Source: an uncultured Gammaproteobacteria bacterium (lineage in GTDB: Bacteria > Patescibacteriota > Microgenomatia > Daviesbacterales > UBA10151). From it: 64,000 nucleotides of DNA. The DNA lies in the NCBI GenBank assembly GCA_964489875.1, contig CAZAZW010000003.1, positions 13,585-77,584 on the forward strand, given 5' to 3'. A program made the position numbers and the translations under genes. Of this stretch, positions 7,673-8,581 are shown piece after piece (within the stretch, counting starts at the first letter, position 1; every line of letters starts with the position of its first letter). The notes under the pieces are model-generated. The model saw nothing but the letters and a program-made list of their open reading frames with translations. It did no database searches and was not told the DNA's origin.

Positions 7673-8581
7673 TTATGACATTGCCAATGCTGCGGTTGTT
7701 ATTTCCAACAACTCTTTGGTAATTGTCTCTTGGCGAGTCTGATTATAGGCAAGATTTAGGTCATCTACAAGCTCCAGGGCATTATCTGTGGCATTTTGCA
7801 TGGCAATCATCCGGCTTGAGTGTTCTGAGGCTTTGGTTTCCAGGAGGGATTGGTAAATTTTAATCTGAATATGATGAACCAACAGAAAATCGAGTAATTT
7901 GTCAGGGGAAGGCTCAAAAAGGAATTCTTTTCCTTTGTCATTCCCGCGCAGGCGGGAATCCAATTCCGAACTAGACTTTTCTAATTGGATCCCGACATCC
8001 GTCGGGATGACACTTGTCAAATCAATCGGCAGCAGTTTTACTTTTGTTGGCTCTTGTCTTAAGGTAGAAACAAAACGGGGATAAACTAAATAAACTTCTC
8101 CCACCTCTTTGGCCCTAAAGGCATCCATTGTGAGTTTTGCAAGTTGAACAGCTTCCCTAAACGTCACTACATCCAAATTCGGAAAATCAGCCTGCAAATT
8201 CTTACCTGATCTGGCCACAAAATTTCTGCCTTTTTTGCCAACTGTATAAAAAATAGTATTGCCGCTGGTTAAACCGGAAGATGTAAGCATTCTGAAAAGG
8301 TTAGTATTTAGCGCTCCACACAAACTTTTGTCTGTAGATAACAGAATTACACCCTGAGTGCTCACACCATTGCCTCCCAGCAACGGATGAGATTCCACAT
8401 TAACAAGAGACAACAACCGCTCCAGTGCTGAGCTTAAATTAAAGCTGTATGGCCGCCCATTTAAGGCCTGGTTTTGCGCCCTTCTCATTTTGGTAGCCGC
8501 TACCATTTGCATGGCTTTAGTAATTTGAGCCGTATTTTTGACAGATCTAATTCGTCTTCGCAGTTCTTTGGTATTAGCCAT
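7673..8581 (-). CDS. atpG: F1 ATP synthase gamma subunit (carries a 25-codon repeat-derived insert)
   Basis: [36 protein letters not shown] at the N-terminus and ...[18 protein letters not shown] at the C-terminus. Confidence 0.93.
7937..8011. repeat. 75-bp GTCATT...ATGAC nested-palindrome element inside atpG
   Basis: gtcattcccgcgcaggcgggaatccaattccgaactagacttttctaattggatcccgacatccgtcgggatgac. It contains two hairpins, each an 8-bp stem with a 4-nt loop. Confidence 0.8.

Follow-up and report, generated by a model that had tools for sequence, protein, structure and literature searches.

A palindromic repeat of probable CGTC-1 type, read in frame in the ATP synthase gamma gene of a Daviesbacteria-type genome

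The window analysed here is a 64-kb stretch of metagenome-assembled DNA, approximately 88% of which is coding, and it includes atpG, the gene for the F1 gamma subunit of ATP synthase. The nearest homologues of the encoded protein belong to Candidatus Daviesbacteria, a CPR/Microgenomates lineage (CPR, Candidate Phyla Radiation). Inside this gene lies a 75-nt palindromic segment, which is probably an inverted dimer of two repetitive extragenic palindromic (REP) hairpins. The gene, the segment and its parts are arranged as follows, in window coordinates.

7673–8581, minus strand: atpG, ATP synthase F1 gamma, 302 amino acids (PDB matches down to E 1e-49; PF00231)
7937–8011: complete inverted dimer, probably of CGTC-1-type REP hairpins, 75 nt, tags outward, CCA tails inward, equal to 25 atpG codons on the minus strand
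7936–7962, plus strand: arm 1, tag tGTC, hairpin ATTCCCGC-GCAG-GCGGGAAT (7940–7959), tail CCA
7986–8012, minus strand: arm 2, in minus-strand reading tag tGTC, hairpin ATCCCGAC-GGAT-GTCGGGAT (8008–7989), tail CCA
7960–7988: spacer with complementary ends CCAATT/AATTGG, gene-strand reading CCAATTAGAAAAGTCTAGTTCGGAATTGG

The segment has the sequence GTCATTCCCGCGCAGGCGGGAATCCAATTCCGAACTAGACTTTTCTAATTGGATCCCGACATCCGTCGGGATGAC, with the ends GTCAT...ATGAC. A repeat search returned two perfect hairpins with 8-bp stems and 4-nt loops (7940–7947 with 7952–7959, and 7989–7996 with 8001–8008), together with an outer inverted repeat (7936–7965 with 7983–8012) that includes CCAATT/AATTGG. Every anatomical detail of the preliminary description of this DNA, namely the 75-nt length, the inverted termini, the two 8-bp/4-nt hairpins and the central CCAATT/AATTGG, was recovered by this search. 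The differences between the stem of arm 2 and that of arm 1 are all compensated. In 100 dinucleotide shuffles of the window, no chance matches were expected for either of the 23-nt arms, and likewise none for the terminal pair GTCATYSC...SGRATGAC. Folded as RNA, the 75-mer has a z-score of -4.3, and an equally good fold was obtained in none of 200 shuffles. The identical gene, with both hairpin arms, is present in the Logan assembly of run SRR4343435 (L121), which may have been built from the same reads as the source assembly. Searches of the entire window returned no Rfam family at gathering thresholds, and no tRNAs. On the opposite strand, the region 7899–8084 (+) forms a 61-residue open reading frame (ORF) containing SFPRRRES and WIPTSVGMT; repeat-derived ORFs of this kind can be annotated as spurious hypothetical proteins.

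In the protein, the element corresponds to gamma residues 191–215, flanked by LLPIDLTS and KGKEFLFEP, and occupies the loop between a strand (residues 176–184) and the C-terminal helix (226–301). Its reading as 25 codons inside ATP synthase gamma, already proposed in the preliminary description, is confirmed by ORF 7673–8581(-). So is the expectation that normal gammas are shorter here: alignment to solved gammas gives 28 residues at the insert site versus 9 in the Escherichia coli protein, and the loop spans 33 residues in the query gamma versus 11–16 in 10 Daviesbacteria orthologues. The orthologue alignment called for earlier indicates an insert that is lineage-specific and polymorphic among Daviesbacteria gammas. 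In an AlphaFold model derived from 120 orthologues (mean pLDDT 82.7), confidence is high except at residues 195–218, where pLDDT falls below 50; mapped on this model, the insert is a low-confidence loop before the C-terminal helix, and the peptide is accordingly modelled as disordered. The reading frame is open across the loop in 16 of the 16 atpG loci examined, and also across the copies in gyrB, murC and rho, and the tag-to-tag length is divisible by three in 8 of 12 intragenic copies. Open frames and multiple-of-three lengths are as expected from selection on a translated insert, and would not be required by ribosomal bypass or RNA excision. The copy is thus probably translated as a 25-residue flexible loop. 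Its persistence would be explained by a loop that tolerates insertions and an insert that is free of stops, rather than by any usefulness of the peptide.

CGTC-tagged REPs, as characterised in a 2013 survey (Di Nocera et al. 2013, PMC3733652), carry a CGTC or TGTC tag (CCTC in many copies), stems of 8–9 bp starting A-T, T-A, loops of 4–5 nt, and an unpaired 3-nt tail with the consensus CCA. They occur mostly as inverted dimers whose spacer ends are complementary, and are sometimes intragenic, in which case the dimers encode 20–30 amino acids. The CGTC-1 type has an 8-bp stem, complementary A and T at positions one and two, and a 4-nt loop. Its counterparts are dRS3 in Neisseria and, in Rickettsia conorii, RPE-6, one of the Rickettsia palindromic elements (RPEs); RPE-4 also falls in the CGTC super-family. 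Intragenic CGTC-1 units of R. conorii encode the peptides SFLRKQES...LLDSRFRGND, SFPRKRES and VIPAKAGI. The survey reports CGTC repeats from five phyla, mostly from alpha-Proteobacteria, and detected no association between them and transposase genes.

Both arms of the 75-mer have tGTC directly before the stem, a perfect 8-bp stem beginning AT, a 4-nt loop, and CCA after the hairpin. Among 11 aligned arms, orthologous and paralogous, GTC is invariant (11/11) and CCA is present in 10. The dRS3 motif (ATTCCC-N8-GGGAAT) matches exactly at 7940–7959. The Neisseria NTS, CGTCATTCCCGCGMAVGCGGGAATCYRG, within which dRS3 is contained (Chenal et al. 2025, PMC11893778), matches 7936–7963 at 26 of 28 positions, the two mismatches being the outermost ones; zero matches to either motif were expected by chance. 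When the segment was compared by blastn with plasmid-collection records, only arm 1 matched, in Neisseria gonorrhoeae (at least 40 places), Photobacterium, Legionella and Sphingomonas. The element's own peptides, LDSRLRGND and VIPTDVGIQ, can be compared with LDSRFRGND and VIPAKAGI of RPE-6, a link made via the literature rather than via an alignment of RPE DNA.

On these grounds, we consider it likely (probability roughly 0.7) that the segment represents a selfish repeat of palindromic structure, built as an inverted dimer of CGTC-1-type hairpins in the class that comprises dRS3/NTS, the Ssn-related motifs (SRM) and RPE-6. The idea of an RPE-like, nested-palindrome mobile element translated in frame is therefore supported, as the segment fits the CGTC-1 definition feature by feature. 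Since RPE-6 is itself classed as CGTC-1 and both arms fit that type, the comparison with RPEs probably amounts to class membership, beyond analogy. The earlier statement that no such family had been described holds for this host group, as a literature search returned nothing on such repeats from CPR/Patescibacteria, but not for the repeat class, which has been known since 2000/2013, with its nuclease family, Ssn, known since 2025 (PMC11893778). The repeat class, its intragenic occurrence and a candidate nuclease are all already published. The apparent novelty lies in the host group, in the proportion of copies that are read in frame within essential genes, and in the turnover at one atpG codon.

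The stems appear to be under constraint as nucleic acid. Base pairing is Watson–Crick in all 88 stem cells of the 11 arms. Covariation is seen at three of the eight stem pairs and a one-sided (G-U type) change at none; the covariation score was reached in 0 of 500 shuffles, in a sample that is small and whose repeat-family copies are not independent of each other. The compensated change between CCCGAC/GTCGGG and CCCTGC/GCAGGG is an example, and the encoded residues differ along with the pairing, T..V against A..A. Because the stems are kept Watson–Crick by compensated changes, the constraint acts on the nucleic acid and not on the peptide. The lack of G-T intermediates would fit a DNA hairpin better than an RNA hairpin.

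Copies of related dimers had been noted at three other places in the window. All three are present, though they belong to other stem subfamilies.

5569–5643, plus strand: intergenic dimer, ATTGCGAG subfamily, 75 nt, GTCATT...ATGAC, degenerate stems
48447–48532, plus strand: CGTC-like dimer, ATTCTGG subfamily, in frame in gyrB (46704–48758)
49553–49644, plus strand: CGTC-tagged dimer, ATTGCGA subfamily, in frame in murC (49375–50856), peptide RHCDPAKPEKQSSLEDNPTKIASSPTAPRNDD

The window thus holds one CGTC-1 dimer and three GTCAT...ATGAC dimers of other subfamilies, the latter being only about 57% identical to one another. The census used a structural search, GTCAT plus a folding hairpin, in place of the published SRM expression. 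The intergenic dimer has a putative carbonic anhydrase gene on one side and a glyoxalase-family gene on the other. The gyrB dimer forms a loop relative to solved structures, at the position of the large insertion in E. coli GyrB; representatives of 50%-identity GyrB clusters vary in loop length at this site, and no clear repeat-derived peptides were seen in them. The murC dimer likewise falls in a loop relative to solved structures. Spacer included, it shares 74.5% identity with the element in atpG of L126, another Daviesbacteria genome. The gyrB dimer resembles the atpG element of L122: the left arms are near-identical, the right arms begin alike, and identity across the full element is 62%. 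The same families therefore occur in different genes of different genomes.

The CGTC-1 type itself recurs in related genomes, at L123 6473–6496, L125 3826–3848, L130 3882–3948 (an intergenic CGTC dimer directly after the atpG stop codon) and in rho of L212. The spacer is kept in the atpG copy of L123. A scan of metagenomes with the spacer returned four contigs, one with atpG and three with rho (L212, L214 and L215); the rho copies consist of the same 75-nt dimer, its 33-nt spacer unchanged, and are read in frame within the variable N-terminal portion of Rho. The 75-nt pair with its spacer thus recurs as a whole, both within different genes and between genes, among related organisms.

Several single observations concern the structure of these repeats. 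The Daviesbacteria-type genome L130 has, in another loop of gamma, a solo 36-nt hairpin of CGTC type (3158–3193), which encodes IATPANGRTRND. The left arm of the murC dimer (window 49563–49579) and the right arm of the L126 atpG element (approximately 9052–9068) each contain a nested mini-hairpin, TCCGGC-N3-GCCGGA, and the dimers of L125 and L213 have extra sequence nested inside them. The repeats themselves serve as insertion targets.

The gamma loop is variable across Daviesbacteria. In 120 orthologues, 279–338 residues long, it was classified by its peptide as follows.

NTS-type loop (VIPxxAGIQ...RLRGND): 11/120
ATTGCGAG-type (GCGAG) loop (VIASxAKQS...PRND): 14/120
ATTCTGG-type (CTGG) loop (VILASEARPES...RMTE): 6/120
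ATTCTGAAC-type (CTGAAC) loop (VILNVSEGS...QND): 6/120
Other-palindrome loop (HLRGE...SHLGG): 14/120
No insert, loop of 11–16 residues: 10/120
Unclassified loop: 59/120

One and the same surface loop of gamma therefore holds at least five palindrome types, or none, and these states are scattered over a neighbour-joining tree from which the loop was left out. The query gamma (P0001, NTS) is sister to P0002 (CTGG), to which it is 89% identical. Further mixed sister pairs are P0007 (NTS) with P0010 (CTGAAC), and P0041 (GCGAG) with P0064 (empty). In the seven loci with readable GTCAT and ATGAC ends at this site, the left junction follows the same Ser/Thr codon, whatever the element type. A gamma search of genome contigs returned about ten Daviesbacteria-type loci among the matches listed, followed by Verrucomicrobia. 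Because the types are intermingled on the tree, the pattern points to repeated replacement or re-insertion at one atpG position, and not to slow divergence in place; target specificity and nuclease-driven exchange are not distinguished by it.

A stronger version of this reading would make the atpG loop a true exchange hot spot, where CGTC subfamilies and GTAG-like palindromes are swapped after the same Ser/Thr codon on a short time scale, with a hairpin-specific nuclease acting on single-stranded DNA as the driving force. We regard this version as doubtful. Were it true, a protein loop would be replaced like a cassette, repeats in gene-dense CPR genomes would live mainly inside essential genes, and the protein-coding palindromes of the Rickettsia type would be tied mechanistically to the Ssn nuclease family.

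The palindrome of the HLRGE...SHLGG loops is CACCT(C/T)C..GGTG, with its reverse complement approximately 25 nt away (L127, L130 and L133; 14 of the 120 orthologues), and a residual GTCATCCC stub precedes it in some orthologues. The records of L130, L132 and L134, whose atpG products are 58–67% identical to the query gamma, bear the title 'uncultured Gammaproteobacteria bacterium', and these names are probably wrong.

A candidate for mobilising such hairpins is the Ssn family of small GIY-YIG nucleases (cd10448 type), whose genes the motif typically brackets. SsnA binds its hairpin only when the DNA is single-stranded, and the cut falls a few nucleotides upstream; the GTC before the palindrome is critical for cleavage, and the C after it for binding (PMC11893778). 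Both features are present in both arms of the 75-mer, and invariant in all 11 aligned arms. A scan of viral contigs for hairpins returned, among the matches listed, two contigs (L102 and L042) in which a GIY-YIG ORF of about 100 residues is bracketed by cGTCATTCCCGCGAAGGCGGGAATCCAG and CTGGATTCCCGCCTGCGCGGGAATGACg (cGTCATT-hairpin-CCAG / CTGG-hairpin-AATGAC). In these ssn units, as in the 75-mer, the tags face outward and the tails inward. A Patescibacteria metagenome-assembled genome (MAG), L211, has a GTCAT...ATGAC dimer directly upstream of an Ssn-like gene (P0311), and another GTCAT hairpin directly after the stop codon of that gene.

Since its outward tags are those of the hairpin/ssn/hairpin unit, the dimer can be read as a gene-less miniature of that unit. 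In the scheme that follows from this, copies would spread via single-stranded DNA: the hairpins would extrude and be bound by a small Ssn-family GIY-YIG nuclease, with cleavage a few nucleotides to the 5' side of the GTC tag; the dimer, as a miniature of tag-hairpin/ssn/hairpin-tag lacking the gene, would be moved in trans. Mobilisation by an Ssn-type nuclease is less certain than membership in the repeat class, and we put the scheme as a whole at somewhat below even odds.

A different set of GIY-YIG genes, reached with an approximate 83-residue consensus as query, was rejected as the partner of the GTCAT hairpins. These genes adjoin tRNA genes in Levy-, Curtiss-, Pace- and Daviesbacteria, belong to a different subfamily and have unrelated flanking hairpins. 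In Microgenomates, 83-residue GIY-YIG genes lie directly downstream of tRNA genes (L208 2780–3260, L209 1650–2040, L210 2850–3260 and L127 18711–19140), with AT-rich hairpins ahead of them (such as GCAGCGTAATAAATT...AATTTAAACGCTGC) that are unrelated to those with GTCAT. Such a gene and its AT-rich hairpin may form a separate hairpin/nuclease pair.

Several results weigh against the reading of the 75-mer as a mobile CGTC-1 repeat served by an Ssn nuclease. The whole window holds a single CGTC-1 dimer, and no target-site duplication is visible at any atpG junction examined. Two motif expressions applied to all six frames of the window detected no ssn (GIY-YIG) gene, and a single GIY-YIG ORF (L127), of the tRNA-adjacent subtype and with other flanking hairpins, was present in 337 kb of Daviesbacteria-type DNA. 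The published SRM expression, HGTCWYN(0-2)YYVSBRHN(0-5)WNVSBRGN(0-2)RNCYNB, has no matches in the window; compared by hand, arm 1 departs from it at the final flanking base only, and arm 2 within the stem. Transposition of an NTS-ssn-NTS unit was raised by the Ssn authors as a hypothesis only, and never demonstrated (PMC11893778). Translation of the insert is deduced only from the open frame. Finally, in 4 of the 12 intragenic copies the length from tag to tag is not divisible by three, which leaves the limits of the inserted unit incompletely defined.

An alternative to an Ssn nuclease is that the segment is a REPIN-type dimer mobilised by a RAYT (Y1_Tnp) transposase. REP dimers that form larger hairpins are the classical proposed RAYT substrate, according to the 2013 survey (PMC3733652), and in two related Daviesbacteria genomes RAYT-like genes (PF01797, 215–223 residues) adjoin the atp operon (L125 5839–6486 (+) and L126 3914–4585 (-)); the window has none at that position. 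However, the flanks of the L125 and L126 genes are TTCCCAC-N7-GTGGGAA (with a GTAG tag) and CCGATCCGGGATCGG, not GTCAT hairpins, whereas ssn genes do have bracketing GTCAT hairpins, and the survey, as noted, detected no association of CGTC repeats with transposase genes. Mobilisation by RAYT is thus unlikely. Equally improbable, and disfavoured here, is co-option of the insert as a functional gamma loop that modulates rotation or ATP hydrolysis, like the chloroplast/cyanobacterial insertion, and is kept by selection on the protein. The loop is at least 17 residues long in 110 of the 120 orthologues, and BLASTP against spinach gamma places the insert opposite the chloroplast redox-regulatory segment, with LLP(I/L)/(F/I)L(E)FE(P/Q) in common, an alignment to an approximate spinach sequence that serves as a lead only. 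If it holds, the gamma loop is presumably a known insertion-tolerant site. Against co-option, the peptide is not conserved, being replaced by unrelated palindrome-encoded sequences (at least five) or by none, even in sisters that are 89% identical; its amino acids follow the needs of stem pairing (T..V versus A..A), its modelled confidence is low, empty alleles exist, and the same DNA is found in rho and in non-coding DNA.

It is also conceivable that the segment is never translated, being skipped by ribosomal bypass or removed from the mRNA. Precedents for bypass are the hop in phage T4 gene 60 and the mitochondrial 'byp' elements, and the strong folding of the RNA (z = -4.3) and the interruption of an essential gene would suit such a process. 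The frame, however, stays open in each of the 16 atpG loci, as it does in gyrB, murC and rho, the lengths of 8 of the 12 intragenic copies are multiples of three, which neither bypass nor excision would impose, and proteins carrying RPE-1, a different and longer Rickettsia element, are reported to be expressed in vivo (PMC3733652). An untranslated segment is therefore very improbable. An assembly or chimera artefact, for which the metagenome-assembled source is the sole ground, is excluded for practical purposes: the sequence is identical in the separate Logan assembly L121, whose reads may be the same, and in many MAGs and contigs, drawn from different studies, this site is filled by homologous elements.

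The window also holds the TTCCCAC-N7-GTGGGAA family that flanks the RAYT-like genes elsewhere. Copies lie in frame in holB (46031–46051, ORF 45963–46616 (+)) and in a Mur ligase gene (56541–56561, ORF 55738–57195 (+)), with the peptides ASHLTSGNT and ASHSSSGNV. The family occurs also in L123, L124, L125, L127, L132 and L135, and inside atpG in L124 and L127. The identical 21-mer is found both just upstream of and inside the RAYT-like Y1_Tnp gene of L125, with the GTAG tag on the other strand.

The 75-mer, read as a CGTC-1 dimer, can be compared with several known systems. With the CGTC-1 REPs it shares the TGTC/CGTC tag, the 8-bp stem starting with AT, the 4-nt loop, the CCA tail, inverted dimers with complementary spacer ends, intragenic dimers of 20–30 residues, and the coexistence of subfamilies in one genome. 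It differs in its host, here a CPR/Patescibacteria lineage, and in that three of the four window copies are intragenic, while most copies described so far are intergenic; the other three window copies, moreover, have longer bipartite stems, outside the published 8–9 bp and 4–5 nt (PMC3733652). Neisseria dRS3/NTS and Ssn are matched by the exact dRS3 in arm 1, the 26/28 agreement with NTS, the retained GTC and 3' C, and the outward tags as around ssn genes. In contrast to this locus, the Neisseria copies form intergenic mosaic arrays that flank genes and modulate transformation (PMC11893778; NIMEs, Bentley et al. 2007, PMC1797815), whereas the window has a single dimer inside coding sequence and no array; a further difference from the Ssn/SRM system is that the window yielded no ssn gene and no match to the published SRM.

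Like RPEs, these repeats lie in frame in housekeeping genes (here atpG, gyrB and murC, and rho elsewhere), all in loops compatible with the fold, as judged against solved structures or the model. The R. conorii RPE-6 (CGTC-1) peptides, such as ...LLDSRFRGND, SFPRKRES and VIPAKAGI (PMC3733652), are of the same kind as those that this element gives in its reading frames. Rickettsia belongs to another phylum, with another lifestyle, and RPE-1, the best-known RPE family, is longer (approximately 100–150 bp) and unrelated in sequence (Ogata et al. 2000, 2002, as cited in PMC10969869 and PMC3733652). The RPE literature, in its available text, contains no turnover of different families at one codon position, unlike the Daviesbacteria atpG, and no mechanism for the in-frame palindromes of Rickettsia. 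REPINs and BIMEs with RAYT have in common with the 75-mer a doublet of inverted short hairpins that form a larger hairpin; in both cases the unit is presumably non-autonomous and depends on an enzyme whose single-copy gene has the same hairpins on either side. The tag here is, however, GTC(AT) and not GTAG, the RAYT-like genes of related genomes are not flanked by the element's hairpins, and the candidate enzyme is a GIY-YIG nuclease and not an HUH/Y1 transposase. From a classical MITE, the element, which does have inverted termini, is set apart by the lack of target-site duplication at the atpG junctions.

If the segment is a CGTC-1 dimer, the host range of a class known from Proteobacteria (dRS3/NTS and RPE-6) extends to the Candidate Phyla Radiation, with Neisseria and a Daviesbacteria genome carrying the same hairpin, almost base for base. 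For annotation, VIPxx-type and RNDx peptides in CPR proteins would be repeat-derived loops rather than domain features, and should not drive alignments; loops of this origin would largely explain the range of gamma lengths, 279–338 residues, in the Daviesbacteria clade. The atpG loop, finally, occurs naturally in filled, differently filled and empty allelic states, a series that could be used for testing Ssn-type movement of hairpin pairs.

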